Origin: a virus
DNA: 64,000 nucleotides
Reading direction: 5' to 3' (one strand)
Virus record (IMG/VR): IMGVR_UViG_3300045988_100160
Location: 804-64,803 of that record
The notes under the pieces are model-generated. The model made no database searches. It had not been told where the DNA came from and saw nothing but the letters and a program-made list of their open reading frames with translations. Position 1 is the stretch's first letter. Each line of letters begins with the position of its first letter. The translations under genes and the position numbers were made by a program. Positions 3,754 through 64,000 of this stretch are shown piece by piece.

Positions 3754-4056
3754 TTAAAAACGTGTAATAAAAACCTCGAACCAATCATTTGTTCTGCCAG
3801 ACTCGGCTACCGAGATTATATCTTTTAATGTTTCAATCGATGCCTGATAAATAACCATCTCAGTCTTATTACTTGAATAAGACTGCTGTTTTTCTTGTGC
3901 ATCGTGCAACCATTGGTGTAAGAACGGAATATCTACCTTATGTTCCATACTATTCCAATCAAGGTGTTCATTTGCATATTGTTCTACCTCTGAGATAAGA
4001 AAAGCATAATGCAAGTATGGACATCGCCTGTCTTTCCTAAAGATGTAAACCTCCAT
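3754..4056 (-). CDS. hypothetical protein
   Basis: Track ORF with an ACAGGAGG RBS. Confidence 0.6.
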   Translation of the reverse strand: MEVYIFRKDRRCPYLHYAFLISEVEQYANEHLDWNSMEHKVDIPFLHQWLHDAQEKQQSYSSNKTEMVIYQASIETLKDIISVAESGRTNDWFEVFITRF

Positions 4057-4067
4057 ATATCCTCCTG

Positions 4068-4382
4068 TTAATCAATTTGAGTGTATATTGTTTTATGCCC
4101 ATCATTAATATATTTTTTAATCTGACATAGTTGCGTTACTTCGTCAGGGAATATCAATGGGTCTCTTGGGTTTGCTAATGGACTGCGAGTTAATGTTCCA
4201 TCTTCACAAGCCTGCAACAAACGTGCCACCAAAGAACCATCAATAATGTATTCCTCATTTGGTTGAAAGTCACGAAGATTATCTCTGAAAAATCTTCCGA
4301 CATTTCTATTGTAGATACTAAAGTGTGCCACAGGGATAACTCTGTGGTTTACAAACACATAAAACTCGTTATATAATCCCAT
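4068..4382 (-). CDS. hypothetical protein
   Basis: Trimmed to ATG 4382 after cACAGGAGGacta. TAATG overlap with the upstream stop. Confidence 0.6.
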   Translation of the reverse strand: MGLYNEFYVFVNHRVIPVAHFSIYNRNVGRFFRDNLRDFQPNEEYIIDGSLVARLLQACEDGTLTRSPLANPRDPLIFPDEVTQLCQIKKYINDGHKTIYTQID

Positions 4383-4783
4383 TAGTAGTCCTCCTGTGGA
4401 TTGATACCATAATCCAATGGATTGTATTCTTTTTCTTGAAACACAGTCCATACACGTTTGTCCAAGCGGTTTTCTTTCAAGAATTGATATAACGTATCTT
4501 GCAGTCGTTTTTCCAATTCCTCGTCTTGTTCATCGGTTAATTTATCGTCTAACGCAATATCGTAATCTTCTTCGATTTTGTCGTTCATATCCCACATAAT
4601 TTGTTCTGCATTAAACATATCTGGAATATAATACGATGGATGTCCGATGCATACCGTTGGACAATCAAGGTTTTGACAATCGTCTTCATAGAAATTCTCT
4701 ATGGCATCCTTAATGGTCGCTTGCGGTTCACCACAAGTATCATCGGTTGTCCAACAATATTTAGTTTCATCTAAGATATACAT
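4382..4783 (-). CDS. hypothetical acidic protein
   Basis: Track ORF with an ACAGGAGG RBS. The product is D/E-rich. Confidence 0.6.
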   Translation of the reverse strand: MYILDETKYCWTTDDTCGEPQATIKDAIENFYEDDCQNLDCPTVCIGHPSYYIPDMFNAEQIMWDMNDKIEEDYDIALDDKLTDEQDEELEKRLQDTLYQFLKENRLDKRVWTVFQEKEYNPLDYGINPQEDY

Positions 4784-7412: not shown

Positions 7413-7554
7413 TTTTTGTTCCTCCTGTAATAATAAAACCCCAGATTGTTTAATGTTTAACAGGTGTTTTCCTTACCTGTTGATTACATTATATCAGTTG
7501 GGGTTTTGTGTGTCAACAACTTTTTTACAAAATTTTGACTTTTTTATTTTGCTA

Positions 7555-7977
7555 TTATTTTGTCGTGTATTCTTGCATTAAATCAGCCACAGAAATCCAT
7601 CTGTAGCCTGCACCAATGGCATTATACATCTGTACAAACACGGTATCAATTTCTTTATCAACACGCATATCACAGCCGACTAGATGGGTTGCACCATCTT
7701 TATTGCACACATATCTACTCATGTATTGAACTGCTGATAGCACTTGCTTATCAATATCCATATATTGCTCTTCGGCATCTGCCATGGCTTTAAATAGTTG
7801 GTTAATGTCGTAGTGACCGATGTATGTAAATTCGTTGGTAATATTGTGTATTGTATCGCAAGAGCCATCATCATATAAAATATAATAGTCACCATTCACA
7901 TCTATTCGACATATAATAATAGTAAATCCCTCATCATCAATATATATGTCTCCGACTGTTGTTTTATGTCTATCCAT
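7555..7977 (-). CDS. hypothetical protein
   Basis: Track ORF with an ACAGGAGG RBS. Confidence 0.6.
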   Translation of the reverse strand: MDRHKTTVGDIYIDDEGFTIIICRIDVNGDYYILYDDGSCDTIHNITNEFTYIGHYDINQLFKAMADAEEQYMDIDKQVLSAVQYMSRYVCNKDGATHLVGCDMRVDKEIDTVFVQMYNAIGAGYRWISVADLMQEYTTK

Positions 7978-8287
7978 TATCCTTGACCTCCTGTTCTAGC
8001 GTGTAATAAAATTGCTCCAAGAATTGGTCTACTTGATTAATTTCAAACCCAGTGTAAACATGATGTTCATAATCGACAAAACCCTCTGGGTGGTCTTCCC
8101 AAGAACACTCATACACAACTCGACCGTCTTTCAATCGTATCACAAACGCCTTATACATGAGTGTTAATGTTGCGTATTCATCATATGCGACCTCTTGGTT
8201 TGCAACGATTGTAAATTGCTTGTCGGTGTAATCATATGAGGAACCGTTTGTACTAGCCATCTGGAACATATGCATGATATCAAACAT
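7970..8287 (-). CDS. hypothetical protein
   Basis: Trimmed to ATG 8287, preceded by ACAGGTG. Confidence 0.55.
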   Translation of the reverse strand: MFDIMHMFQMASTNGSSYDYTDKQFTIVANQEVAYDEYATLTLMYKAFVIRLKDGRVVYECSWEDHPEGFVDYEHHVYTGFEINQVDQFLEQFYYTLEQEVKDNG

Positions 8288-10911: not shown

Positions 10912-11328
10912 CTAGTCACAAGTTCTAACACCAATAAACTCAATTAAGTTTTCCCAATTGTGTGACTCGTTGCTATTAATGGTAACATAAGTGATGTCAA
11001 ATTTGCTGTCGTATAAATCAATAGTACAGCCCTCTAAAGACTTGAATAAGTGTAAATGTTTCTCAGCGGTCGGTAATGCTTTGCGATATAGTTCAAAGAT
11101 TTTAAACTCATAGGCTTCACTTAATGCATTAATACTGCTTTCTACATCAACTGTATGTCTGTGGGAATAATATTTATCGACAGGCTTTAATGGTCTACTA
11201 TCGTGAACTTCAAAAATATCACGGCTTGGATTGTAAACAATACATTCTGCCCCATGTACATAGTTTAGAAATACGACTGGTCTACCAAATACATCTTCAC
11301 ATAGCTCGCCTGCTACAAATTTACTCAT
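10912..11328 (-). CDS. hypothetical protein
   Basis: Trimmed to ATG 11328 after cACAGGAGAaaacaa. Confidence 0.55.
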   Translation of the reverse strand: MSKFVAGELCEDVFGRPVVFLNYVHGAECIVYNPSRDIFEVHDSRPLKPVDKYYSHRHTVDVESSINALSEAYEFKIFELYRKALPTAEKHLHLFKSLEGCTIDLYDSKFDITYVTINSNESHNWENLIEFIGVRTCD

Positions 11329-12019
11329 TTGTTTTCTCCTGTGCATTAAAAATCCGTTGTTTGGCAACATCAAAATACATTGGGTCTAACTCAATACCAA
11401 TGAAATCTCGACCCAATTCAACGGCTGCAACACCTGTTGTACCAGAACCCATAAATGGGTCAATAATGGTATATTCTTTTGGCAGAATACCAATAATGTT
11501 TTTCATTACTTGTAATGGCATCTGACATGGATGCACTGTTTTTTCTGCTGAGGTGTTCTTCACGATATTAATGTTCCACCAATCGTAAATCGGTGTGCCC
11601 TGTGAACCGTTTTCAATCAACCGTTTAATCCGTTTATCATTTGGGTTCTTATATGGTTGTAACACTTGTTTAAAGTCAGGTGTTACACCAAAGAACGCAA
11701 TGTCTCGGTGTTGCTTGCGGTTGTTTGAATTATATACCCATGATACCACTTTAGTTGGTGGTCTGTCAATATCAATCGCAAGTTGATACAGTTGTTCTGG
11801 ATAGTGAATAACAACAGATGGATGCGATGGATTGAACACCTGTTGCAACATCTGTCTATAATCTCCATCGCTCATTCTGTCGTGATAACCGTTGTAATGA
11901 TACCCAATGTTAAACGGAGGGTCTGACACGATGATATATGGTTTATTTTCCGCTTGCAATTGGGTTTTGATGGGTTGCAATATGGTTCGACAATCGCATT
12001 GATGTAGCTCAATCATCAT
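11321..12019 (-). CDS. beta-class DNA methyltransferase (N6-adenine or N4-cytosine)
   Basis: Motif IV SDPPF comes before motif I FMGSGTTG, which is the N6_N4_Mtase order. Start trimmed to the MMIELHQ methionines. Confidence 0.8.
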   Translation of the reverse strand: MMIELHQCDCRTILQPIKTQLQAENKPYIIVSDPPFNIGYHYNGYHDRMSDGDYRQMLQQVFNPSHPSVVIHYPEQLYQLAIDIDRPPTKVVSWVYNSNNRKQHRDIAFFGVTPDFKQVLQPYKNPNDKRIKRLIENGSQGTPIYDWWNINIVKNTSAEKTVHPCQMPLQVMKNIIGILPKEYTIIDPFMGSGTTGVAAVELGRDFIGIELDPMYFDVAKQRIFNAQEKTNE

Positions 12020-12407
12020 AGTCTTCCTCGAATAACATTTTTGCAATTTCTTCATCATAACTAAAGCCAAGTAGCCTTAAGATGTCGTCTTTGTCTTTTT
12101 CAGTAAAGTCTCTATGACCGTTTAGTTTGAGAGACAAATTTGTGAGACTAATTCCTAATAGGGATGCAACTTTACCGACACCCAAATTACGGTCTTTAAA
12201 CATTCCTCGCAACATTGTGTGTCGTTCTTGGTATCGTGTTCCAATGTCTACTTTGAGTCGTGCAAGGTATGTTTTGACATCTTCAATATCTTTAAAAGTG
12301 TCATCTTCTAATACATTTTGCAACTTTGACAGCAACACCGATGTTTCTTCAAACTTCTTGTAATCTTCTTCGATTACAACTCCATTAATTCGTACATGTG
12401 TTTTCAT
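12009..12407 (-). CDS. HTH DNA-binding protein
   Basis: Trimmed to ATG 12407 after GGAGGaatat. Helix-turn-helix-like segment VGKVASLLGISLTNLSLKLNG. Confidence 0.5.
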   Translation of the reverse strand: MKTHVRINGVVIEEDYKKFEETSVLLSKLQNVLEDDTFKDIEDVKTYLARLKVDIGTRYQERHTMLRGMFKDRNLGVGKVASLLGISLTNLSLKLNGHRDFTEKDKDDILRLLGFSYDEEIAKMLFEEDYDD

Positions 12408-21189: not shown

Positions 21190-21262
21190 TGCACCCAGCA
21201 AGATTTGAACTTGCATCACGAGAAGATGATAAAATCGTTGCTTTTCATTAAGCTATGGGTAC
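21190..21262 (-). tRNA. tRNA-like gene with aberrant anticodon arm (isotype undetermined)
   Basis: The 7-bp acceptor GTACCCA/TGGGTGC, D-arm GCTT..AAGC and T-arm GCAAG-TTCAAAT-CTTGC are good. The anticodon region, however, is a 4-bp stem ACGA/TCGT with a 13-nt loop. Confidence 0.4.
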
Positions 21263-21417
21263 ATAACGACTTGGGTTTTACCCCAAGTCAGTCAGGAGGA
21301 AAAATCATGCGTATCTCTTGGACTGTTACCCAAGACATACGATGTATGCCATCCGAATGAGAAACCCTTGAGTAACCCATTCGGTGATACAATGCCGTAA
21401 CATATGTATCGTGGCTA

Positions 21418-21503
21418 TGGTGCCGTTGATAGGATTCGAACCTATGAAGCTATAAGCGACAGATTTACAGTCTGTTGTCTTTATCCATCTTGACTACAAC
21501 GAC
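21418..21503 (-). tRNA. tRNA-Tyr (GTA), long variable arm, CCA encoded
   Basis: Hand fold: acceptor GTCGTTG/CAACGGC, anticodon stem ACAGA/TCTGT with loop CTGTAAA, and T-arm ATAGG-TTCGAAT-CCTAT. Confidence 0.85.
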
Positions 21504-21507
21504 ATGC

Positions 21508-21597
21508 TGGAGGAAAGTGTGGGATTTGAACCCACGGAACATTTCTGTTCAACAGTTTTCAAGACTGTCGCATTAAACCAGACTCTGCCAACTTTCC
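21508..21597 (-). tRNA. tRNA-Ser (TGA), type II, CCA encoded
   Basis: Acceptor GGAAAGT/ACTTTCC, anticodon stem ACAGT/ACTGT with loop CTTGAAA, long variable arm, and T-arm GTGGG-TTCAAAT-CCCAC. Confidence 0.85.
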
Positions 21598-21600
21598 ATG

Positions 21601-21675
21601 TGGCTCTTGGGATAGGACTCGAACCTATAACTCTCTGGTTAACAGCCAGATGCTCTACCATTGAACTACCCAAGA
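21601..21675 (-). tRNA. tRNA-Asn (GTT), CCA encoded
   Basis: Acceptor TCTTGGG/CCCAAGA, anticodon stem TCTGG/CCAGA with loop CTGTTAA, and T-arm ATAGG-TTCGAGT-CCTAT. Confidence 0.9.
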
Positions 21676-21838
21676 ATAAATACAACACCACTATATACTA
21701 TCGGATTTGCACTCGATATTTCCGCCCAAAAGGACTTTGTTTTACTCTTAAACTAAGTATGTAGCTGTTGCGTGGCATACATGGTAAAACATTCCATGGC
21801 TACGTTCTACCCTTAACGGCAATGCATGAATACCGTTT

Positions 21839-21928
21839 TGGAGGATGGTACAGGATTTGAACCTGTGGTTGTTTTGCAACAACATTTCTTTAGCAAAGAA
21901 ACTCAATAAGCCACTCTGACAACCATCC
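21839..21928 (-). tRNA. tRNA-Ser (GCT), type II, CCA encoded
   Basis: Acceptor GGATGGT/ACCATCC, anticodon stem TTTCT/AGAAA with loop TTGCTAA, long variable arm, and T-arm ACAGG-TTCAAAT-CCTGT. Confidence 0.85.
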
Positions 21929-22030
21929 ATGTGAGTGGGTTGAGAAAACAGGGTACCTCCGTTCTCTCTCTAACGGCAAACCAACTCATACCGACCACCA
22001 TGGTTGCGACCCATAGTGGATTTACCTTAT

Positions 22031-22146
22031 GGAGAATGTTGGATTCGAACCAACGTCTTCTACTTCGTACACTCTGAACCGTCAAATTTCTGGAGTCGAA
22101 CCAGTATGTTGAACCTCATAGTGCTTTACCATTAAGCTAATTCTCC
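22031..22146 (-). ncRNA. 116-nt tRNA-like element with about 40 extra nt and a second T-arm-like hairpin
   Basis: Perfect acceptor GGAGAAT/ATTCTCC, D-arm GCTT-AATGGTA-AAGC and 3' T-arm GTTGG-TTCGAAT-CCAAC. The interior holds a TATG/CATA stem with 8-nt loop AGGTTCAA, plus CTGG-TTCGACT-CCAG. Confidence 0.4.
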
Positions 22147-22149
22147 ATG

Positions 22150-22246
22150 TCTACCGCCATACAATCCTTGTTGTATCATTCGACCACCGAAAGATTGCAA
22201 TCTCGATGTCTTATGTTCGTATACGTCTATACTCATCGGCGGTAGA
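22150..22246 (-). ncRNA. 97-nt multi-hairpin structured element closed by a 9-bp stem
   Basis: TCTACCGCC pairs with GGCGGTAGA. Four internal hairpins by eye: GATG..CATC, AGAT-TGCA-ATCT, TTCG-GTGGT-CGAA and ATACAA-CAAGGA-TTGTAT. There is no ORF. Confidence 0.35.
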
Positions 22247-22510
22247 TGTGTATACACTCCGTTGCTTATCGCACGTCAACGACTGCGGATTTTAACGTCT
22301 GGTCTGACGGCAGTAAGAAATTCGTAGTATGGTTTTAATACTTACATTTCTACATATGATTGTTGTCGCTTTATCTAGCGTGTGCAATTATGGAATGGCA
22401 CAAGACCCTAGGTTGACATCTCTAGTGATGGTTTGCAGTTGTCTCTGACATGTTTTCTCGTCACATGTAACGCCACACTTTTGACACGGTAGTCAGCACC
22501 GTATGCTATT

Positions 22511-22569
22511 TGGGTCTCTTGGGAATCGAACCCAAGCTCAAGTGTACTGATTGCATCCTGCAACGACCC
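22511..22569 (-). ncRNA. truncated tRNA-like element (T-arm plus acceptor 3' half, no D or anticodon arm)
   Basis: TTGGG-TTCGATT-CCCAA followed by GAGACCCA. The 5' partner GGGTCGT pairs only partly. Total length is 59 nt. Confidence 0.35.
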
Positions 22570-22649
22570 ATGTGTGTCAACGGATGTGACTCCGTTGACT
22601 ATGTTAAGAAAGGAGGTGCACCAAGGAGGAACACAACCCTTGGTACATT

Positions 22650-22681
22650 ATTATAATAACACTTGCAGTCGTATATGTCAA
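22650..22681 (-). promoter_or_regulatory. promoter TTGACA-17-TATTAT driving the tRNA/ncRNA island
   Basis: -35 at 22681..22676 and -10 at 22658..22653 on the minus strand. It lies between the dnaB-like stop and the RNA island. Confidence 0.75.
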
Positions 22682-22697
22682 GTATTGATTTGTGTTT

Positions 22698-23858: not shown

Positions 23859-24127
23859 TAGTCCTCCGATAACGTAATCACGGTATTGGATTTCTTATGA
23901 TATTCATCGACATAATACTCATTGGTATTGCCATTAAATGTCACTTCCCAGTATGTATGGTCGTAATCATCATGTGTTGACATAACCAATGCTTTATGGT
24001 TTCGCAATGTTTTTGAGAACCAAACAATGTTTAGAGACTCAGATACCTCATCAACTTTATTGTCTTCGACATTCATGGTAAGCAATACGGCTTCGATACA
24101 GTTATCAATAAATTTATTCATTACCAT
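23858..24127 (-). CDS. hypothetical protein
   Basis: Trimmed to the ATG after cACAGGAGGttac. ATG 24121 is also possible. Confidence 0.5.
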   Translation of the reverse strand: MVMNKFIDNCIEAVLLTMNVEDNKVDEVSESLNIVWFSKTLRNHKALVMSTHDDYDHTYWEVTFNGNTNEYYVDEYHKKSNTVITLSED

Positions 24128-25013
24128 GTAACCTCCTGTGGTGTTCAATAATATTCTTCCCAAGTTCATATATAATCGGAATAGACACGGAATTACCAGC
24201 TTGTTTATACAATTGTGCGTTCGATTGTATCTTTGCACAGGTATCAAACTGTTGGTCTGTAAATCCTTGTAATCGCCAGAATTCTCTAGGGGTCAACTTG
24301 CGTATTACATTAGGATTGCGACTTAATAATATCTTTGGTTCAATACCACCGCCCTTGACACACGTCAAAGTTGGGGATAACCCATGTGGTGAATATATGC
24401 GACCTCGTTGTGGATTGCCAACAAAAGAAGTCGTATTGATTATGTTTCCGACTTGAACAATAGATTGTTCGCTTTGGTTTGGTCTGTATAAAATGTCTTC
24501 GGTACATCCGTTTCCAAGATGTCCGATAATGTACACCCTTTCACGGTTTTGTGGTAGTCCAAAGTCTTTTGTGTTATACACACGCCATGCGATACTGTAC
24601 CCTGCTTTGTCCATTTCAGACAAAACCGAGTAAAATCCACATCCGTTGTCAATTGACAAGAGGTTTTTAACATTCTCAATAAGCAACCATTGGGGTTTAT
24701 GTTTTGTTTCATGTAATAGCCTCGTAATCTGATAAAACAAACCACTTCGAGTGTTTTCCATGCCGTGTTTAAGACCAGAAATGGATACCGACTGGCATGG
24801 AAAACCACCGCACCACAGGTCTGCATACGGCATCTCTGTACCGTTTAATGCACGAATACCTGGTGAAAACCAAAGATTATCCGTTGGGTATAACGCACGG
24901 TATGATGCTTGTGCGTATTTGTCTTGTTCGCACCAACCAATGCACTCCATGCCAGCTTTGGTTAAGCCAGAGTGGAAACCGCCGATACCAGCGAATAAAT
25001 CAATGAATTTCAT
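24114..25013 (-). CDS. dcm: DNA (cytosine-5)-methyltransferase
   Basis: Motif I DLFAGIGGF, motif IV GGFPCQ, motif VI ENV and motif X GNSV, all in order. Confidence 0.9.
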   Translation of the reverse strand: MKFIDLFAGIGGFHSGLTKAGMECIGWCEQDKYAQASYRALYPTDNLWFSPGIRALNGTEMPYADLWCGGFPCQSVSISGLKHGMENTRSGLFYQITRLLHETKHKPQWLLIENVKNLLSIDNGCGFYSVLSEMDKAGYSIAWRVYNTKDFGLPQNRERVYIIGHLGNGCTEDILYRPNQSEQSIVQVGNIINTTSFVGNPQRGRIYSPHGLSPTLTCVKGGGIEPKILLSRNPNVIRKLTPREFWRLQGFTDQQFDTCAKIQSNAQLYKQAGNSVSIPIIYELGKNIIEHHRRLHGNE

Positions 25014-31123: not shown

Positions 31124-31404
31124 GATGTTCCTCCTGTCTGATAAATAGTTTGTTTCTGACTTGTTGTACCATCATTATAGCATACCTGTATTACCAAGTC
31201 AAGGAAGTTTTTATCTGACTAAGAAAAATACAATCGGCTTGCCGATTATTGCGAAGCAATTCATATGGTTTGTCGTGTATCTTATGTTATTCGAACGTAG
31301 TGAGAATACATAAGATACCAAACAAGTATTCCACTACTGTATGAAAACCTTAAGTAGAAAAACAGAGAGTGAAAACATATGTATGGGGAACAACAGTTTT
31401 AAGA

Positions 31405-31530
31405 CCAAAGTATTAATAACCAAGGTATGAACAACCAATGTATTCCATACCAACGTTTTAATCCAAAGGTATTCATACACAAGTATACTTAGGTATTAAT
31501 ACACAGGTATATTCTTATGTATTAATACTA
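31405..31530. repeat. iteron array: about 9 copies of CAAnGTATT / GTATTAATAC at 10-15 bp spacing
   Basis: The run reads aagtattaataac, aggtatgaacaac, tgtattccatac, ggtattcatacac, aagtatactt, ggtattaatacac, ggtatattcttatg, tgtattaatacta. It sits inside the 570-bp ORF-free gap 31124-31693. Confidence 0.7.
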
Positions 31531-31693
31531 AGGTTTGATAGGGTATCACAAAAGTCTAAATTTGTCAAGGATAAATATCACAATTTTACACAAAATTTTA
31601 GACATAAGAATTACATTGTTTGAACGCCAAAATACCCAAGCCGTATTTGACTTGGGTTGATTTTGGTTCTCAATATTTGATTGTTAATCTTTG

Positions 31694-32424: not shown

Positions 32425-35400
32425 ATGGCAGACAACTTTATTCACTTGCATCTGCACTCACAGTTTTCCAACTATGGGATGAAAGATGCAATTAGTTCTG
32501 TAGATGGTATCATTAAGCGTATACACGAACTTGGACAACGAGGGTTTGCACTCACAGACCACAATGGTTGTTCAGGCTTGATTGATACATATGTGCATCT
32601 ACAGAAATATAACAAGAAACATGGCACAGATTTAAAACTTGTGATGGGGTCAGAGTTATATTATACATATGATGTCCACATAAAGGACAAATCATATAAT
32701 CATATCTTGTTTCTTGCGAAAAATCAAGTCGGACTTGAGAACTTGTTCAAGTTAACAAGTGAAGCACATAAACACTATTATTACAAGTCAAGATGTGACC
32801 TTGATATGATACGCAAGTACTCAGAGGGTTTAATCTGTACATCGGCATGCATGGGTGGATGGCTTAAGGGTGATAATCGTGAGTCGTTAATTCCGCAGTT
32901 CAAAGACATCTTTGGTGACGACTTATATTTTGAAATCCATACATATCAACATGAAGACCAAAAGCGTTTTAATGCAATGGTTGCAGAAATGGGTGCAAAA
33001 TATGATGTACCATTGATTGCCGCTTGTGACTCTCATTATGTGTATGAAGAAGATTACGCTTTACATAAGGCTTTCCGTGGTCGTTCTCAAGATGACGATG
33101 AAGACCAATACTATGGTTCAAACGACTTCTTTATCCAATCGGAAGCGCAGGTATTCGACCGTCTATATCCACAATTTGGTGTTGATATGGTTGAAGACAT
33201 GGTGAAGAATACCAATATTATTTTTGACAAATGTAATACACAAGTTGATTTCAACTTGGATGTCTATCCAAAGTATGTTAAAGATGGCGATGTAAAACCT
33301 GTGTTTTTAGATGCGTTGAGACAGGGGTATAAACAAAAGATTTTAAATCAGGTGACCCCAGAATTTAAGAAACGTGTTGACGAACGTGTCCCACATGAGA
33401 TTGATATTTTGGAGCAAGTTGGTTATATGGACTATCTGTTGATTACCAAAGATATTCTCGATGCTTGTCGTGAACGTGATATTCCAGTTGGACATGGTCG
33501 TGGTTCGGTTGGAGGATGCGAGTGTGCATATTTACTCGATATTACATCTTTGGATGCTATTACAAACAACTTGTATTTTGAACGGTTTGCAAACCCCAAT
33601 CGTGTATCACCCCCAGACGTTGACAACGATTGCTCTAAGGTAAGACGAGGAGAAGTTATTCAATATCTTGAAGAAAAATACAAATATGTCTATCAATGTC
33701 GTACATTTTCCTACATGAAAGCATCTGGAGCATTAAAAGAAGCTGCACGATGTCTAGGCGTAGACCATACTATTGCAGATGCCTATTCAAAGAAAATCAA
33801 GGATGTATCTTTTGACGATGATGAAGATTTCCATGATAACGACCTTGAGTATGCAAAACTTGATTATATAAATGATGGTAAACATCAAGAGATGTTTGAA
33901 CTCGCTAAGAAGCTGGTCGGTATTATGACTGGCTTTGGGAAACACGCATCGGCAGTCATTGTTTCAAACCAAGATATTACCAAGTATTGCTCACTAGAGA
34001 TGCAAAAAAATTCTCAAACAAAAGAAGAAACCTTTGTGGCATCCACAAACTTTAAACATTTAGAGTCTATGGGTTTTCTAAAAGAGGATATTCTTGGTCT
34101 TAGAACCTTGGATGTAATCAATGATTGTGTAACGATGGCTGGTGTCAAAAACAGTCTTGACTTGGCAAAATTACCTTGGGATGATAAACCTACGTTAGAC
34201 TTGCTATGTAAAGGTGATACACTTGGAGTATTCCAAATGAAATCACAAGGAATGGTAAGAACTCTTAAAAGTATTGCCCCAAAGAACTTTGTCGATTTAA
34301 TCGCTGTGGTTGCCCTGTATAGACCAGCGTGTATTTTAACAGGCATGTTAGATGAGTATATTGACCGCCGTAATGGTAAGCCGTTTGAGTACTTAGATGA
34401 ACGATTAAAAGAACCATTAGGTGAAACATATGGTATCATGGTGTTCCAAGAACAAATTATGCGTGTGTGTCAGATTATCGCTGGATATTCAATGGCGGAA
34501 GCAGATACGGTAAGACGTGCGGTTGGTAAAAAAGACCACGATTTAATGCAAGAGATTACGGCAGAATTTGTTGACCGTGCGGTTGCGAATGGTACAGATA
34601 AAGATGTGGCGAAACAAATTTTAGACATGATTATTGCAGCGGCGAGCTATGGATTTAATAAGGCTCACAGTCAATCATACGGCTACATGGCATACATAAC
34701 GGCATACCTCAAGGCACACTATCCGCTCGAATTTTATGTGGCAACTATTAACTCCGAAGATGGCAACCAAGAGAAAATCTTGCCGTACATCCAAGAGATG
34801 CAACGCAAGGGCATCAAGATATTACCACCTGACCTACGCTACAGTGAACGTGAGTGGACAGTCGAAGATAGTTCTGTGCGTGTTGGTCTTTCGTACATCA
34901 AAGGTATTAACAAGATTGAAAAACCACACGAATATACAATAGATGCCATCTTTAGTAAATACTCTAAGTTGCAATTACAGGGTCTAGTCGGTAGTGGTGC
35001 ATTAGACTTCTTGGGTAATACACATGAACTCATGGCGTTAATTCCTGAGTATAAGTCATATGATAAAGACCGCAAGAACGCTTTGCATAAAATACATGAG
35101 TGGCAATCTAAGTTACAACAACACGAAGACACCATGTATACAAACGATGGATTGTTCTCTGATAAAGAATTAAAGTCTTTGGATAAAAAGAAACAGAACA
35201 TCGAAAAGAAAATCCAAGAATGGACAGACAAGTATAACTCTATAATGCTCATAGAACGCCCAAATTTGAGCTCTAAGGTGCCTGTGGTATCTCTTAGGTA
35301 TGAATACCTTGGGTGTACGTTTGAAGACCCTTTAAAAGCATATAACACAAATTTAGCCAATGGTCGTGACGTCAAGGCAATCATTGTGTCTGATTTTAAA

Positions 35401-35580
35401 ACGAAAACAACCAAGGCTGGCAAACCTATGGCATATGTATTCGACCATGTTGGCAACAAGTATGTCATGTGGTCTAACTACTTGGTTGAGTTACAGGTCG
35501 GTACAGGATATTATATCCAAGTGCGTGGCGACACAATCACAAAGGTTAAGCCATTGGAATTAAAACAAAATAACGCTTAA
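32425..35580 (+). CDS. dnaE: DNA polymerase III alpha subunit (DnaE-type)
   Basis: 1051 aa. N-terminal PHP motif FIHLHLHSQFS, the polymerase core, and an aACAGGAGGtaaaaat RBS. Confidence 0.9.
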   Translation: MADNFIHLHLHSQFSNYGMKDAISSVDGIIKRIHELGQRGFALTDHNGCSGLIDTYVHLQKYNKKHGTDLKLVMGSELYYTYDVHIKDKSYNHILFLAKNQVGLENLFKLTSEAHKHYYYKSRCDLDMIRKYSEGLICTSACMGGWLKGDNRESLIPQFKDIFGDDLYFEIHTYQHEDQKRFNAMVAEMGAKYDVPLIAACDSHYVYEEDYALHKAFRGRSQDDDEDQYYGSNDFFIQSEAQVFDRLYPQFGVDMVEDMVKNTNIIFDKCNTQVDFNLDVYPKYVKDGDVKPVFLDALRQGYKQKILNQVTPEFKKRVDERVPHEIDILEQVGYMDYLLITKDILDACRERDIPVGHGRGSVGGCECAYLLDITSLDAITNNLYFERFANPNRVSPPDVDNDCSKVRRGEVIQYLEEKYKYVYQCRTFSYMKASGALKEAARCLGVDHTIADAYSKKIKDVSFDDDEDFHDNDLEYAKLDYINDGKHQEMFELAKKLVGIMTGFGKHASAVIVSNQDITKYCSLEMQKNSQTKEETFVASTNFKHLESMGFLKEDILGLRTLDVINDCVTMAGVKNSLDLAKLPWDDKPTLDLLCKGDTLGVFQMKSQGMVRTLKSIAPKNFVDLIAVVALYRPACILTGMLDEYIDRRNGKPFEYLDERLKEPLGETYGIMVFQEQIMRVCQIIAGYSMAEADTVRRAVGKKDHDLMQEITAEFVDRAVANGTDKDVAKQILDMIIAAASYGFNKAHSQSYGYMAYITAYLKAHYPLEFYVATINSEDGNQEKILPYIQEMQRKGIKILPPDLRYSEREWTVEDSSVRVGLSYIKGINKIEKPHEYTIDAIFSKYSKLQLQGLVGSGALDFLGNTHELMALIPEYKSYDKDRKNALHKIHEWQSKLQQHEDTMYTNDGLFSDKELKSLDKKKQNIEKKIQEWTDKYNSIMLIERPNLSSKVPVVSLRYEYLGCTFEDPLKAYNTNLANGRDVKAIIVSDFKTKTTKAGKPMAYVFDHVGNKYVMWSNYLVELQVGTGYYIQVRGDTITKVKPLELKQNNA

Positions 35581-59188: not shown

Positions 59189-59227
59189 TCTCTATATATA
59201 GTATAAAACACTTTAATTTTGTAACAC
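59189..59227 (-). promoter_or_regulatory. 38-nt conserved late-promoter-like element, copy 1, 22 nt upstream of terL
   Basis: On the minus strand it reads GTGTTACAAAATTAAAGTGTTTTATACTATATATAGAG, followed by the TAAGGAGG RBS. Confidence 0.55.
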
Positions 59228-59246
59228 TTTTTTTTGAGAAAAACTA

Positions 59247-59855: not shown

Positions 59856-59890
59856 AATGTCAGATTCTCCAAAAATATTTCAAAAAGTTG

Positions 59891-59919
59891 TTGACACGAT
59901 ATATTTCATCATGTATTAT
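59891..59919 (+). promoter_or_regulatory. promoter TTGACA-17-TATTAT for the recombinase cassette
   Basis: -35 at 59891-59896 and -10 at 59914-59919. Confidence 0.75.
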
Positions 59920-59957: not shown

Positions 59958-60488
59958 ATGGCTAATACAACAGAACCAATCAGAAATTTATCCAAAGTCC
60001 AAGAAATGAAACAAGCACTTGGCAACGACCGAGACAAAATGTTATTCACCCTTGGTATTAACTCTGGTCTCCGCATCAGCGACCTAGTAGGGTTGACCGT
60101 AGATGATGTTAAACCAGAGATGGAATTGTATGAACAAAAAACAGGTAAGTTTAAACGGTTCATGTTATCCAAAGAAGTGTACGCATTGTTATGCGAATAC
60201 GCAAGCCGATGCAAGCATTGGCTGTTCCCAAGTCGCTCTGGTGACGGTCATATCTCAACTGTACAAGCGTGGAGAAAAATCAAGGCTGCATCCGTGAAAT
60301 GCGGTTTAGATAACATCGGTACACACTCTATGCGTAAAACCTTTGGGTATCACGCATACCGCAAGGGTGTACCAATTGCATACCTTATGCAAGTCTTTAA
60401 TCACTCCTCGGAAGCAATCACAATGCGATACATTGGTATCACAACCGAGGAATTAAATACTAAAGTTTATGCCATTATGGCTTTATAA
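59958..60488 (+). CDS. tyrosine recombinase, catalytic domain only (176 aa)
   Basis: Catalytic R (GLRISD), HSMRKT (HxxR), NHSS (H) and MRYIG (Y) are present. There is no N-terminal core-binding domain. Confidence 0.8.
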   Translation: MANTTEPIRNLSKVQEMKQALGNDRDKMLFTLGINSGLRISDLVGLTVDDVKPEMELYEQKTGKFKRFMLSKEVYALLCEYASRCKHWLFPSRSGDGHISTVQAWRKIKAASVKCGLDNIGTHSMRKTFGYHAYRKGVPIAYLMQVFNHSSEAITMRYIGITTEELNTKVYAIMAL

Positions 60489-60503: not shown

Positions 60504-60758
60504 ATGATTGCAACTATTTTAATTCTATTATTGGTTACAGCAGTTAGTCTTGCGATTGCTTTGGTAGTCGGATGGTTGACATCGCCACGAACAGCAGGGT
60601 TCTTATATATTATTGTCGCTGGCATGTTTGGTGCATCCACTATTAGTAATATCTTAGATGGTACTGTAAGATTTGGTGACTCTTGGTTATCTTTTGCAAT
60701 TTGTGCAATCTTTATTTATATCGGATTGCGATTCATTGCCGAGTTCCCAGAGTATTAA
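60504..60758 (+). CDS. small integral membrane protein
   Basis: Track ORF with an ACAGGAGG RBS and 2-3 TM segments. Confidence 0.55.
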   Translation: MIATILILLLVTAVSLAIALVVGWLTSPRTAGFLYIIVAGMFGASTISNILDGTVRFGDSWLSFAICAIFIYIGLRFIAEFPEY

Positions 60759-60775
60759 TCACAAAGCAATCAACA

Positions 60776-60821
60776 GGGCATACATAAGTTTATATCTTAT
60801 GATATATTCTTATGTATGCCC
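60776..60821 (+). terminator. 13-bp-stem terminator (bidirectional)
   Basis: gggcatacataag ... cttatgtatgccc followed by tgtttgtgttt. Confidence 0.75.
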
Positions 60822-61129
60822 TGTTTGTGTTTCTTGGGGTTGAGTCTGTATGTCTCACCTGTATGTTGTTCTGTAGGCTCATAGGTTAGGTCTCAAACAT
60901 AATATCTGACTATAAAGCAAACACGTTAGTGTTTATTGTCGAAGACAATCCTATAGGTATATACTTATGTATTCTTTAGAGTATTCTTGTTTAGATTGCT
61001 TCGCAATACTCCTTACGGAGTGTCTTTCAAGTCGGTTTCTTAAGTTTGGGGCAAAACCCTTTTTCAAAAGCTGTTTCTTAAAACTCTTTCAAGAAAACCA
61101 TCGCTTTAAAACCTATAAGTGAAAACTCT

Positions 61130-61167
61130 CTCTATATATAGGGTAAAACACTTGATTTTTGTAACAC
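61130..61167 (-). promoter_or_regulatory. 38-nt conserved late-promoter-like element, copy 2 (orphan)
   Basis: On the minus strand it reads GTGTTACAAAAATCAAGTGTTTTACCCTATATATAGAG. It points toward the 60776-60821 terminator and the antisense side of the recombinase cassette. Confidence 0.5.
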
Positions 61168-62150
61168 ATTTTTCATAAAATTGGATAAATATTTTATTTT
61201 ACAAGCTAAAATTTACCCCTCAAAAATGCCACTCCGCCCAGTAAACATCTGCGTTTTGAGACTTGAAAAAATTTTTTAGCTTTTATGAGTAAAAAATGCC
61301 ACATAAGTCTTAAATCGGTAAAATCCGATACATGATTTTTAACTCACGCCACACTAGGTTGGTGTCACTACACTAGGCTTACGACAGTATAATTCTTGGG
61401 TTGGACACAATTTGACCCACGTGGGATAAAATCGAACGAATGTACGTTGGAAAACACAACCATAGTATTATGACGAGTTTTCGCCAACGCCATCCTAGGG
61501 TCGTGATTTTTGGTGGAAAATATTTTGGCTTCGGCTGCAAGTTAGTCTGACTAAAAATAAAGCAATCACCATACTAGTATGGTGATTAACTATGTTGAAA
61601 AAGATTGTCTATACGATACACAATCCTAGTAGGATGCAACCCTAGTACCATGTCACAAACTTATAATAACGCTATACTAGGAAAACATATATCAGAAAAC
61701 ATAATCATCATACTAGGGTTTACGTTTTATAGAAATTACATAAGTTACCCTGTGTGCAACTATAAAAATTTCTACAAAAATTTTAAACGATTGTATTTTC
61801 GATAGACAACCCTAATTGGAAAATACGATTGTTCCATATGATGTTTCATATCTTAGACAATCAATAAGAACGATTGTTTTCTCGATAGTTTTTGCGATTG
61901 CTTTCTACATATGTCATATGTTCGTATGTATGAAACCATAGATAAAACAAGGGTTTGTAGACCATTGTATGTTATGGGGTATGGAACATTTGTATGTGCG
62001 TGACAAGTTTGTTCATATGTGTTGACTGTGGTATGGTCTTTTGTATGGTCTTGGGTTTGTTATGATTATACCGCCCCCAGTTGAGAATGGTTCTCCCTTT
62101 TGGATATTGAAAATTTTCGATACGCCTAGGGGTGTCTCATTGGTTCATAT

Positions 62151-62162
62151 GAACACATGTTC
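62151..62162. promoter_or_regulatory. SOS-box-like palindrome GAACACATGTTC
   Basis: Perfect GAAC-N4-GTTC, in the context catatGAACACATGTTCacatatg. Confidence 0.5.
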
Positions 62163-62307
62163 ACATATGCACCATACTAGGGTTAGTCAATCAATCGAAT
62201 AGTATCAATGTAATAGAATATCCATTATCATTCATTCATTATCATTTGTATTCTCAATATGTAGATATCCTAGATAGACAAATGTCGATATATATGTTTG
62301 TACATAT

Positions 62308-62319
62308 GAACATTTGTTC
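62308..62319. promoter_or_regulatory. SOS-box-like palindrome GAACATTTGTTC
   Basis: Perfect GAAC-N4-GTTC. Confidence 0.5.
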
Positions 62320-62802
62320 ATGTGTCAGCTAATGGTTTACAGTTGGGTAACATATGAGCAGATACTCATGTATGCACCATATGCATTATACTCATGATTT
62401 TTAGTAATGTTTGTTATTGGTGTTTGGCTGGTGGTGGTTACAATTGTATTTTATAAAATGTATTTTGATTGGGTATATCAATAGGGTTTGAAAATTCTGT
62501 AGTACACATCAAACCCAAGTCCCCACCCTAGTAGCCTACATACGCACCACCACACACGCACAATAGACATATACATACGTCTATACATCTGTTACATACA
62601 TTAATTATACATATGTATAAACCAAATAAAAATACAACGGTATACATCAATCGTATATAACCGTTATATTTTGCGTTGTATGGTCTTTTGTTTTCGTTGC
62701 ATATGTTTATATTCGAAAGTCTTTAAACGCACCATATAACTCAAATAACGCAATTGTATTTTCTCATTTAGGTAAACATATTGAGAATACCAGCGTATAT
62801 AT

Positions 62803-62814
62803 GAATGGTTGTTC
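62803..62814. promoter_or_regulatory. SOS-box-like palindrome GAATGGTTGTTC
   Basis: One-mismatch core in the tatatGAAT..GTTCatatga context. Confidence 0.4.
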
Positions 62815-62834
62815 ATATGATAGATATAAATATA

Positions 62835-62861
62835 AGCGGTACAGAATTGATCTGTACCGCT
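62835..62861 (-). terminator. hairpin terminator after 62871..63194
   Basis: agcggtacaga-attga-tctgtaccgct. It corresponds positionally to the hairpin at 591-610. Confidence 0.65.
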
Positions 62862-62870
62862 TGTTATTGT

Positions 62871-63194
62871 TTATAGATTTAAGTTATTCGCTATTAGATT
62901 TTGGTAACAAATATATAATTCATGTTCAAGGAACGGCAACCATTTATATTTATCTGCTTTCTTTAAGGTTGACTCATATAAGTCTATAATTTCATTCATG
63001 ACATACACTCTATATTGTGGCGTGCGATCAAATTCAGTTTGTTTATATCGTGGCTCGTATGAGTTATATCTTGACTCTTCAACTAAAACTAATAATCTTT
63101 CTTTTTCTTTGGTTAGCTTGCCACTTTTGGCGTATGCTTGTAGTGTATCAAGGATAACGTATTTTGTGTATGATATTGAAATAGTAAAACTCAT
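62871..63194 (-). CDS. hypothetical protein (AT-rich)
   Basis: Track ORF followed by a terminator. Confidence 0.45.
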   Translation of the reverse strand: MSFTISISYTKYVILDTLQAYAKSGKLTKEKERLLVLVEESRYNSYEPRYKQTEFDRTPQYRVYVMNEIIDLYESTLKKADKYKWLPFLEHELYICYQNLIANNLNL

Positions 63195-63419
63195 CTTAAT
63201 AACTCCTTTTCTTAATACTCAATAAACACATCATCAAAAGATGCATCTTTTGATACATCATAGTGTTTGTTTACTCCGTTGTATGAATACAACGATTAAA
63301 GACAATAAAACTAAAGCCATATAGATGTGTTCTCCTTTCGATTAATAAATAACTATAGATATAACTCATCAAGATAATAATCTTATGTATATTATCTTTT
63401 GTTTTCATATGCTTTACCT

Positions 63420-63755
63420 CTAGCCGTAAAAGTCGATACATTTTGAATATTGTAAATTGTATTCTATAAATGCTCGTTGATTTTCTTTTTGTTCGCTCGT
63501 TCCGTACTCATCACGATCTTTACACCATTTTGGTTCTTGCCAATCAATGAATAGATTATCGTCATACCTAAATGTACGATAATACATAGAAATATAATCT
63601 AATTCGATAAAACTAGGTAACTCTGAACATAAACTATTCATATATTCATCTATATAATCATAGAAATTATCATAAATTGCATATTCTTGATTTTCTATAC
63701 CGTCAATAACATTACAAACGGCTTTATTTTCAATTAGTAAATCAACAATATGCAA
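63420..63755 (-). CDS. hypothetical acidic protein (start uncertain)
   Basis: Track ORF with a TTG start and no RBS. The frame stays open upstream to about 63880 without a canonical start codon. Confidence 0.4.
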   Translation of the reverse strand: MHIVDLLIENKAVCNVIDGIENQEYAIYDNFYDYIDEYMNSLCSELPSFIELDYISMYYRTFRYDDNLFIDWQEPKWCKDRDEYGTSEQKENQRAFIEYNLQYSKCIDFYG

Positions 63756-64000
63756 TTGTTCACTTGTAAAATTTTGTAAGCGTTCAAGATTTTCACAAAT
63801 ATATTCATTTTCATTTTTTAAAATTCTACCATATTTTAATAATTCTCTAAATTCTATATTTTTATACCTCTTTTCTATAAGTTATTTACAATATCTGTAA
63901 TTTGATAATATATATTATCATCAAATTTTATAAAATCCTCGTTACCCTCTATGAGTTCTAATGACTCTAAATAGTCGCAAAAATCATTATATGATATAAC

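Follow-up and report, generated by a model that had tools for sequence, protein, structure and literature searches.

What might 2 kb of phage DNA be for when it holds no gene-sized open reading frame (ORF)? The question is raised by the right-hand island (60831-62870) of a 64,000-nucleotide stretch of the IMG/VR virus record IMGVR_UViG_3300045988_100160 (positions 804 to 64,803 of that record; hereafter the window, in which all coordinates are given unless stated otherwise). The island is non-coding, conserved and functional rather than junk, and we assign a probability of roughly 0.7 to the reading that it is a conserved locus for RNA and regulation in which a structured RNA gene, called R1 here, is genuine, and far less to any particular function.

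The window is most of a ~67-72 kb phage genome: protein scans found TerL, portal, tail and replisome genes in it, in agreement with the phage origin that had been claimed for this DNA from its letters (hereafter the original prediction). At least 30 related IMG/VR contigs, ~67-72 kb long and assembled as circles, form three clades by TerL identity to the window (group 1, 98-99%; group 2, 91-92%; group 3, 89-90%). A further relative with 64% TerL identity, L125, is embedded in a 232-kb contig of Veillonella sp. 3310 and is therefore a prophage whose probable host genus is Veillonella, the genus that the phage family as a whole probably infects; a literature search on Veillonella phages yielded nothing relevant. 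The GenBank phage collection, searched for near and distant DNA similarity, held no match to the window, so the family is an uncultured one.

With a criterion of at least 70 amino acids, no ORF lies between 60759 and 62870, which bears out the 2-kb coding desert of the original prediction and makes these 2112 bp the longest ORF-free stretch of the window (four other gaps are at least 250 bp long). Stop codons of all three kinds are distributed evenly through the six frames, and recoding TAG, TGA or TAA opened no gene-sized frame and nothing longer than ~140 amino acids inside the island. When the 17 small ORFs (30-66 amino acids) were aligned in six close relatives, none was intact in the more divergent ones and none showed a third-position substitution bias. 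The recoding and the small-ORF alignment rule out coding under an alternative code as well as small-protein genes, and an 88-amino-acid ORF that recurs in group 3 was discarded as a spurious reading of conserved R1 sequence. Neither ARAGORN nor the Rfam transfer RNA (tRNA) model found a tRNA or transfer-messenger RNA in 60700-63000. The G+C content of the island is 32-34%.

Whether such DNA is conserved or turns over as hypervariable junk among close relatives had been named as the check to make, and the outcome was the reverse of junk, the island being conserved and collinear in three clades. Within group 1 the whole island is 82-95% identical, profile searches follow its collinearity with groups 2 and 3 from 60700 to ~62800, and all seven close relatives are collinear across it, with inverted or rearranged segments in none. 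An ORF-poor 2 kb also lies at the equivalent position in the Veillonella prophage L125. In places conservation exceeds that of terL: the segment 62126-62260 is 94-98.5% identical in three relatives (L002, L005, and L028), compared with 92-95% for terL DNA. As a whole, the island is a non-coding block of unusual size and unusual conservation.

R1, a predicted structured non-coding RNA of ~300-355 nt, occupies the left part of the island (60826-61128, minus strand), beginning just past a late promoter-like element and stopping at a long hairpin, T1. On the minus strand, the region from the late element to T1 has a fold z-score of -6.95 against shuffles, and groups 1-3 have homologues in the corresponding position and orientation, with hairpin sequences that differ between clades while their pairing is kept. 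The 140-nt core domain of R1 (61035-60896, minus strand), as captured by a covariance model, folds into twin hairpins (H1 and H2), a long-range stem (P4) and a three-way junction (P5/H5/H6), H1 being ACUCC-GUAA-GGAGU with a GUAA loop and H2 being AUUGC-GAA-GCAAU.

Four sequences of group 1 and a structure drawn by hand went into the covariance model, which scored 181 bits on the window, 102 bits on group 2 and 30-35 bits on group 3 (E ~1e-4 to 1e-3), every match in groups 2 and 3 falling at the syntenic position and strand. Groups 2 and 3 taken alone, which had no part in model building, have 94.8% of their alignment cells paired and compensatory changes at 11 of 35 pairs, values that none of 500 shuffles reached and for which slid controls gave 0-1. 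Across 19 distinct R1 sequences from all clades and metagenome contigs, 96.4% of cells are paired, 13 of the 35 pairs are compensatory (80 cells), and the covariation score is 0.334 as compared with 0.129 for shuffled alignments (0/500 reached the observed value) and at most 0.054 for slid controls; these alignments were fitted to the model. R1 therefore shows compensatory substitutions beyond its controls, the generic criterion for a structured RNA gene, and the RNA half of the earlier claim of cis-acting or RNA-coding DNA is borne out by this strong covariation. The strand is given by two independent lines. First, some pairs of P4, of P5 and at the base of H6 are G-U (for example, 107-153 is UG in nine sequences and 112-148 is GU in six), and these would be A-C mismatches on the plus strand, so only the minus strand fits. 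Second, the late element has the same orientation.

Database scans placed R1 outside the known RNA families. In Rfam 15, no family reached its gathering threshold in R1, the only ones that did so being the tRNAs at 21190-22146, and nothing above microRNA-type noise was seen in 60700-63000 at E <=10. Scans of IMG/VR and of a metagenome collection found R1 confined to this phage family, apart from chance matches; the 17 true matches in the metagenome scan all came from it. Weak matches to the R1 model (E ~0.1-0.2) with a similar three-way-junction layout were seen in late genes of group 2 phages (L035 4098-4220, L010 14094-14216, and L012 8585-8707), and these are probably due to chance. A link of R1 to the small recombinase encoded beside it was considered and rejected, R1 being absent beside related recombinases in 64 other phage loci. 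On its sequence evidence, R1 is a previously undescribed structured RNA family of a known kind, the phage-encoded structured RNAs.

The element that precedes R1 had been called late-element copy 2, and a copy is indeed present at 61129-61173 on the minus strand (GTGTTACAAAA..TGTTTTACCCTATATATAGAGA). The window has three copies, at 59233-59189, 45265-45221 and 61173-61129, all on the minus strand and all intergenic. The island copy is 89% identical to that at 59189-59233, which lies between terS and terL, ~20 nt before the terL ribosome-binding site, and the remaining copy precedes the tail-module gene 45181-44762. Its core, TTTTTnACACTATAwrTGAGrG, is kept in all clades: group 3 has it in the island as well as before terL, and L125 has it in its island. 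From this position and conservation we infer that the element acts as a late promoter. A T7-like phage RNA polymerase, considered for CACTATA-type elements, was rejected: none was found among the scanned proteins, and the 1279- and 1658-amino-acid proteins are tail proteins.

At the other end of R1, T1 (60772-60825, unstranded) was found as inverted repeat I13, with 25-nt arms that are 92% complementary and a 4-nt loop; it folds as a stem of at least 17 bp, and every clade keeps it. On its minus-strand side, GTTTTTCGTT, a U-run, comes after the hairpin in group 3. To the left of the island lies a rightward operon of a catalytic-domain-only Xer-like tyrosine recombinase (int, 59958-60488) and an 84-amino-acid membrane protein (orf84), and T1 would end both this operon and the leftward R1 RNA. 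Predicted hairpin terminators stand at both island edges, T1 after the int-orf84 operon and T3 after the leftward gene 62871-63194, which makes the island a convergence zone of the flanking genes.

We suggest that the island would be a block of non-coding transcription units and control sites at which the int-orf84 operon meets leftward early-gene transcription. The late element would fire leftward at ~61130, and RNA polymerase would make an RNA of ~300-355 nt that folds into the twin hairpins and three-way junction and stops at T1; this RNA would be made late in infection and might either work in trans or, as a leader, influence read-through in the direction of terS. In the remaining 1.7 kb, T2 and T3, each a hairpin with a U-run, would stop other leftward transcripts, and lineage-specific palindromes and an ultra-conserved core would bind regulators. 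In this scheme promoter activity, late timing, termination and every function are what we infer from these signals. The leader option is raised by terS (59855), which has no late element of its own and is reached on the same strand only after R1, T1 and then the antisense int operon, so that R1 could be a leader of the 6S/put kind with control over read-through.

A bolder extension of this proposal, which we hold to be improbable, is that R1 and the CYGACU twin-hairpin modules (-61035, +60906, +61547, and +31215) represent a new class of termination-controlling phage RNA. Made from the late promoter and acting in cis, as put or the lambda 6S leader does, such an RNA would let polymerase read through T1, silence int-orf84 antisense by transcriptional interference and enter terS-terL, and the paralogue in the third island (island C) would have the same role upstream of the oppositely oriented SSB and co-oriented DnaE genes. 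If this were so, one structured RNA would couple the shut-off of the lysogeny and recombinase operon to the onset of packaging-gene expression.

Several observations weigh against the RNA and regulatory reading of the island. The covariation in R1 comes from three clades only, hence from few independent events, and H1, H2, H5 and H6 contain Watson-Crick pairs only. A similar module can be read on the plus strand, so use of the hairpins at the DNA level or on the plus strand is possible. Neither the narrow nor a broader R1 model found R1 in the Veillonella prophage L125, in which twin GNRA-type hairpins do lie downstream of the late element. The late element is a poor sigma-70 match, T1, which has a moderate U-run, was not listed by the terminator scan, and the promoter and terminators are consensus-level calls. 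Finally, convincing covariation was absent outside R1, and the 'transcription units' proposed there rest on hairpin and U-run signals. A second structured RNA was looked for in 61545-61775, in 61760-62075 and in the core, with weak or no covariation as the result, and a sliding-window alifold scan was dominated by palindromes and did not discriminate strands.

The plus-strand module leads to the question of whether these hairpins act as DNA. The arrangement CYGACTW - spacer - hairpin - hairpin occurs at +61547, +31215, +60906 and -61035; the R1 region thus carries it on both strands, which explains 41-bit reverse-strand matches of the R1 model. The copy at +61547 (61547-61625), recognized by terminator scan and comparison, consists of CTGACTA, an A-rich spacer, a hairpin formed by a 24-bp palindrome and a second hairpin, and we refer to it as the T2 module. 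In the third island (31198-31693), a paralogue of the R1 twin-hairpin module (31215-31316, plus strand; covariance-model match of 20.9 bits) has a syntenic match in 25 of 27 relatives and adjoins a long hairpin with compensatory changes.

Short repeats are the second feature on which a DNA-level role could be built. The island had been described as packed with four repeat families, and the repeats stand up as a heterogeneous set rather than as four families of one kind, some being hairpin arms or loops, some operator-like palindromes and one lying inside the ultra-conserved core. The hexamer MCTAGK (extended form ~CATACTAGGGT) clusters in both orientations at 61349-62535, with 11 copies in the 2-kb island and 12 in the 58 kb elsewhere, and CCTAG has 13 copies against 0.93 expected from the rest of the genome; CTAG itself is ~3-fold depleted genome-wide outside the island. 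The '10 or more' copies of CAYMCTAGGGT in the original prediction do not hold literally, as only three are exact (61491, 61709, and 62173); with up to two mismatches there are 11 in 61350-62535 and 23 in the window, the hexamer being the robust unit. Among close relatives the CTAG core is kept and the flanks drift. Several MCTAGK copies are arms or loops of inverted repeats, and the pairing of two CTAG motifs into a long hairpin (61637-61660 with 61700-61722) is not kept up in L001 and L028, which do retain the CTAG. The copy at 62173-62183 is invariant in all clades, and the enrichment is strongest in group 1 and weaker in groups 2 and 3. In L125, the place of this cluster (its positions 7660-8165, behind the late element) is occupied by ~14 same-orientation CTATAGAT repeats with irregular spacing of 10-50 nt. 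Direct repeats of AACGATTGTnTTTTCGATAG and ACGATTGT (family D3) fill 61786-61905 on the plus strand, ACGATTGT having three exact copies within 90 bp (61787, 61825, and 61870); groups 1 and 2 keep these repeats, with no covariation in them, a sign of a site that acts at the DNA level. Five of the seven copies of TTTTCGAT lie within islands.

On this basis the modules might be single-stranded-DNA initiation or primosome-loading signals, or an origin, for the DnaB, primase and DnaE of the phage, with the repeats as initiator iterons. We regard this as unlikely, even though the phage encodes its own helicase, primase and polymerase, four of the R1 hairpins are purely Watson-Crick, the module is found, besides +61547 and +31215, on either strand of R1, the ACGATTGT, TTTTCGAT and MCTAGK clusters are iteron-like, and L125 has its one-orientation CTATAGAT array. 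The G-U pairs in P4, P5 and H6 are compatible with one strand only, which fits RNA and at best single-stranded DNA of the minus strand. Moreover, an iteron-type origin is recognized by regularly spaced iterons of at least 17 bp or clustered DnaA boxes next to an AT-rich unwinding element, whereas the repeats here are short (6-11 bp), irregularly spaced and lineage-variable, and no TTATCCACA-like DnaA box (up to one mismatch) occurs in 60831-62870; with DnaA boxes absent from the island, neither the earlier suggestion of a maintenance locus nor an origin role is supported. The island also sits where genes converge rather than diverge, and it is instead the third island, with 15-26-bp tandem repeats at 31404-31534, that adjoins replication genes, namely those for SSB and DnaE.

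The 24-bp palindrome of the T2 module, found to be perfect at 61564-61587 as originally described, invites another interpretation. It is a 9-6-9 arrangement, AATCACCAT-ACTAGT-ATGGTGATT, that could be a target of the adjacent tyrosine recombinase, whether as an attP, an invertible switch or a dif/loxP-like site for resolution or cyclisation; a further candidate is the pair of perfect 15-bp inverted repeats (I19; 62248-62262 and 62776-62790) that flanks 543 bp. The enzyme is Xer-like and of the length of FimB/E-type invertases, the palindrome arms are invariant around a variable 6-bp centre, which in group 3 (L039-L047, ~11574-11597) is present in both orientations (CATAGA and TCTATG), and the convergence zone is a terminus-like position. 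We nevertheless consider recombinase sites quite unlikely. The seven close relatives are collinear without an inverted segment, the 15-bp inverted repeat is perfect in the window only, and phage genes flank the island to its left and right in the Veillonella prophage, so that in this relative it is interior and not attP. Flipping of a hairpin loop between inverted arms is, besides, a known neutral event. Groups 1 and 2 have, on the minus strand, a U-run after the palindrome, as a terminator would, and in these groups its stem is invariant, its loop variable and its closing pair covarying, with compensatory arms (AATCATCTC/GAGATGATT) in group 3. The hairpin-plus-U-run pattern of an intrinsic terminator is found at 61588-61563 on the minus strand, as listed by the scan, and at 62832-62864 on both strands. 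The 24-bp palindrome is therefore best read as a terminator-like hairpin, T2. Separately, we note that the IMG/VR contig 7000000222_000022 ends exactly at this palindrome.

The right half of the island carries palindromes of a different appearance. The GAAC-N4-GTTC palindromes of the original prediction are present at 62151 and 62308, as is GAATGGTTGTTC at 62803, which is a weaker site. The first two lie in the operator-like palindromes (CATATGAAC-N4-GTTCATATG), which are TCATATGAACACATGTTCACATAT (62145-62168, unstranded; identified by repeat scan and motif count) and TTGTACATATGAACATTTGTTCAT (62298-62321, unstranded), the latter with a variant, ATGAGCAGATACTCAT, at 62354-62369. Allowing up to three mismatches, ATGAACATATGTTCAT has 14 matches in the window as compared with 1.2 expected, and 13 of these lie within islands. 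The conserved unit is ~20 bp long, CATATGAAY-N4-RTTCATATG, often with GAAT half-sites. In group 3 the box adjacent to the core is replaced by an unrelated palindrome, CCCCTATG-N9-CATAGGGG, and neither groups 2 and 3 nor L125 have an exact GAAC-N4-GTTC box in their islands.

GAAC-N4-GTTC is the core of the LexA site of Firmicutes (Cheo box), and the boxes could accordingly be Cheo-type SOS sites for the host LexA, which would make the island an SOS-controlled switch of a temperate phage. The core match is exact, five of the six boxes in the window lie in islands, and one relative is a prophage. The longer conserved unit with its frequent GAAT half-sites speaks against LexA, and so does the absence or replacement of exact boxes in clades that presumably share a host genus, a turnover that fits a phage-specific, immunity-type regulator rather than the host protein. 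We thus give LexA control little credence, and suggest from the sites themselves that a phage regulator probably binds these palindromes.

Between R1 and the palindromes lies an 80-bp core, TCTTGGGTTTG..ACCGCCCCCAG-TTGAGAATGGTTCTC-CCTTTTGG..TTGAAAATTTTCGAT (62046-62125, unstranded), that stands out by segment identity. It is 97.5-100% identical in L002, L005 and L028 (terL DNA, 92-95%) and 82-94% identical in groups 2 and 3 (terL, ~82%), and it was also aligned in 23 sequences, the Veillonella prophage among them. It holds AAAATTTTCGA, a GAGAA-N3-TTCTC inverted repeat, the near-palindrome TTGAAAATTTTCGA and the G+C-rich CCGCCCCCAG; the AAAATTTTCGA iteron had been predicted here and is found at 62110, one of three copies in the window (17, 1640 on the minus strand, and 62110). 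GAGAA/TTCTC has changed to GATAA/TTATC in three of the core sequences, and on the minus strand a -10-like TATAAT, TTATAT or TATTAT is present in all clades. As convincing RNA covariation is lacking, the core is most likely a protein-bound regulatory site or a promoter.

At its right edge the island ends in a module (62710-62866, minus strand; alignment A6) that aligns with 480-615, as had been expected from the claimed paralogy to island A. It comprises T3 (62832-62864), a weaker palindrome (62797-62820) and a conserved stretch, TTGCGTTATTTGAGTTATA. In relatives, window position 1 comes ~1.6 kb after the right island, so that this island and island A are neighbors on the circular map with a variable AT-rich cassette between them. 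Each module copy follows the terminator of a leftward gene, the two bracket the cassette, and immediately beyond T3, on its right side, homology to the closest relatives is lost; these terminator-plus-module units may mark a recombination boundary. The cassette itself (62871-64000 and 1-620) is AT-rich (27% G+C), contains small leftward genes and is not shared even with the closest relatives.

The cassette bears on the suggestion that packaging starts (pac/cos), genome ends or terminal repeats fall in the island, which we judge very unlikely. It is true that terS and terL lie within 1-3 kb, that many IMG/VR contigs break 0-3 kb right of the island (one exactly at the 24-bp palindrome), and that CCGCCCCCAG in the core has what we take to be a resemblance to a cos overhang. 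The contig breaks are scattered, however, and coincide with the variable cassette right of T3; no contig ends at the core or at a common island position, and among terminases TerL falls with the Mu-like headful type. In the four related contigs of which both ends were available, closure involves only 55-127 nt of k-mer-like overlap, typical of circular de Bruijn assembly, and with no common end in the island the earlier packaging or terminal-repeat suggestion finds no footing. That the island is decayed coding sequence or neutral spacer, as its AT-richness (32-34% G+C) and its position beside a fast-turnover cassette might suggest, can be dismissed with near certainty given its collinearity and conservation across clades, in parts above terL, its compensatory substitutions and the lack of a frame-like substitution pattern.

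Beyond the island, the genome has features of its own. TerL is Mu-like, with only 33-36% identity to any TerL of a GenBank phage. Replication genes encode a DnaE-type polymerase, a gp2.5-like SSB, a DnaB-like helicase and a primase, and further genes include ThyX, two DNA methyltransferases and a tRNA cluster. The DnaE-type gene (32425-35580) is 0.8-1.2 kb longer in many relatives (L141-L158; match spans of 3942-4389 compared with 3153 nt), which suggests an intein, an intron or a homing-endonuclease insertion. Of the methyltransferases, encoded at 24114-25013 and 11321-12070, one is Dcm-like (C5-cytosine) and one of the N6-adenine type. The middle island (21765-22697, minus strand) opens with a strong sigma-70-like promoter (~22680-22650, TTGACA-17-TATTAT) and includes fragments that resemble tRNA, a GGTTCGATTCC T-arm among them; Rfam reports six tRNAs there (one of 117 nt, 22030-22146), ARAGORN only four. 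Upstream of int, 59891-59919 matches the sigma-70 consensus at 11 of 12 positions (TTGACA-17-TATTAT), and 59870-59897, which includes the -35 hexamer of this match, is repeated in inverted form, at 86%, by the early-region stretch 7510-7537, which suggests that the two stretches may share regulation.

These findings matter in several respects. Few phage-encoded structured RNAs beyond tRNAs have been described, and almost none from phages of oral anaerobes. R1 is a well-bounded candidate, with coordinates, a strand, a covariation-supported fold, a likely promoter and a likely terminator, and it is directly testable, as a related prophage resides in a cultured Veillonella strain. More generally, the island illustrates that a large coding desert can be the most conserved DNA of a phage. 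The core and the lineage-specific palindromes offer probable regulatory sites for binding proteins, and R1, should it turn out to govern late transcription or packaging, would bring a further, RNA-based level into the control of late genes, and this in a phage group that is itself new.

How does this locus compare with known systems? Its palindromes resemble a LexA box or a CI-type operator array in being 12-20-bp sites clustered in non-coding DNA beside early genes; they differ in that half-sites, and even the whole palindrome, change between clades, and no repressor gene was identified. Its right edge is reminiscent of the promoter-early stem-loop (PeSL), or boundary, modules of T4-like and lambdoid phages, where a repeated terminator hairpin and conserved sequence (here 62710-62866 and 480-615) surround a variable AT-rich cassette and homology breaks at the module, while only two module copies are present in the window and the putative recombination is deduced from the position of the homology break. 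Like GOLLD, ROOL and the phi29 packaging RNA (pRNA), R1 is protein-free, structured and encoded by a phage, contains multi-helix junctions and would belong to the productive (late) phase, and, as in the GOLLD/ROOL/pRNA context, other RNA genes (the tRNA island) lie in the same genome. Its size (~300 nt) and architecture are different, no Rfam model, those of GOLLD, ROOL and pRNA included, matched at E <=10, and pRNA phages have protein-primed DNA and no TerS, whereas the phage studied here has TerS, TerL and portal. As a working analogy, we compare R1 with the PR'-6S RNA-tR' arrangement of lambda, which serves Q antitermination, and with put of HK022. Here, ~0.9 kb of opposite genes (int and orf84) separate T1 from terS, no Q-like gene was identified, no sequence similarity was seen, and the conserved fold of R1 is much larger than 6S. 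What these loci would have in common is a short RNA, a late or regulatory promoter and a strong terminator ahead of the late genes and, in the case of put, two adjacent stem-loops near the 5' part, the very place that the twin hairpins hold in R1.

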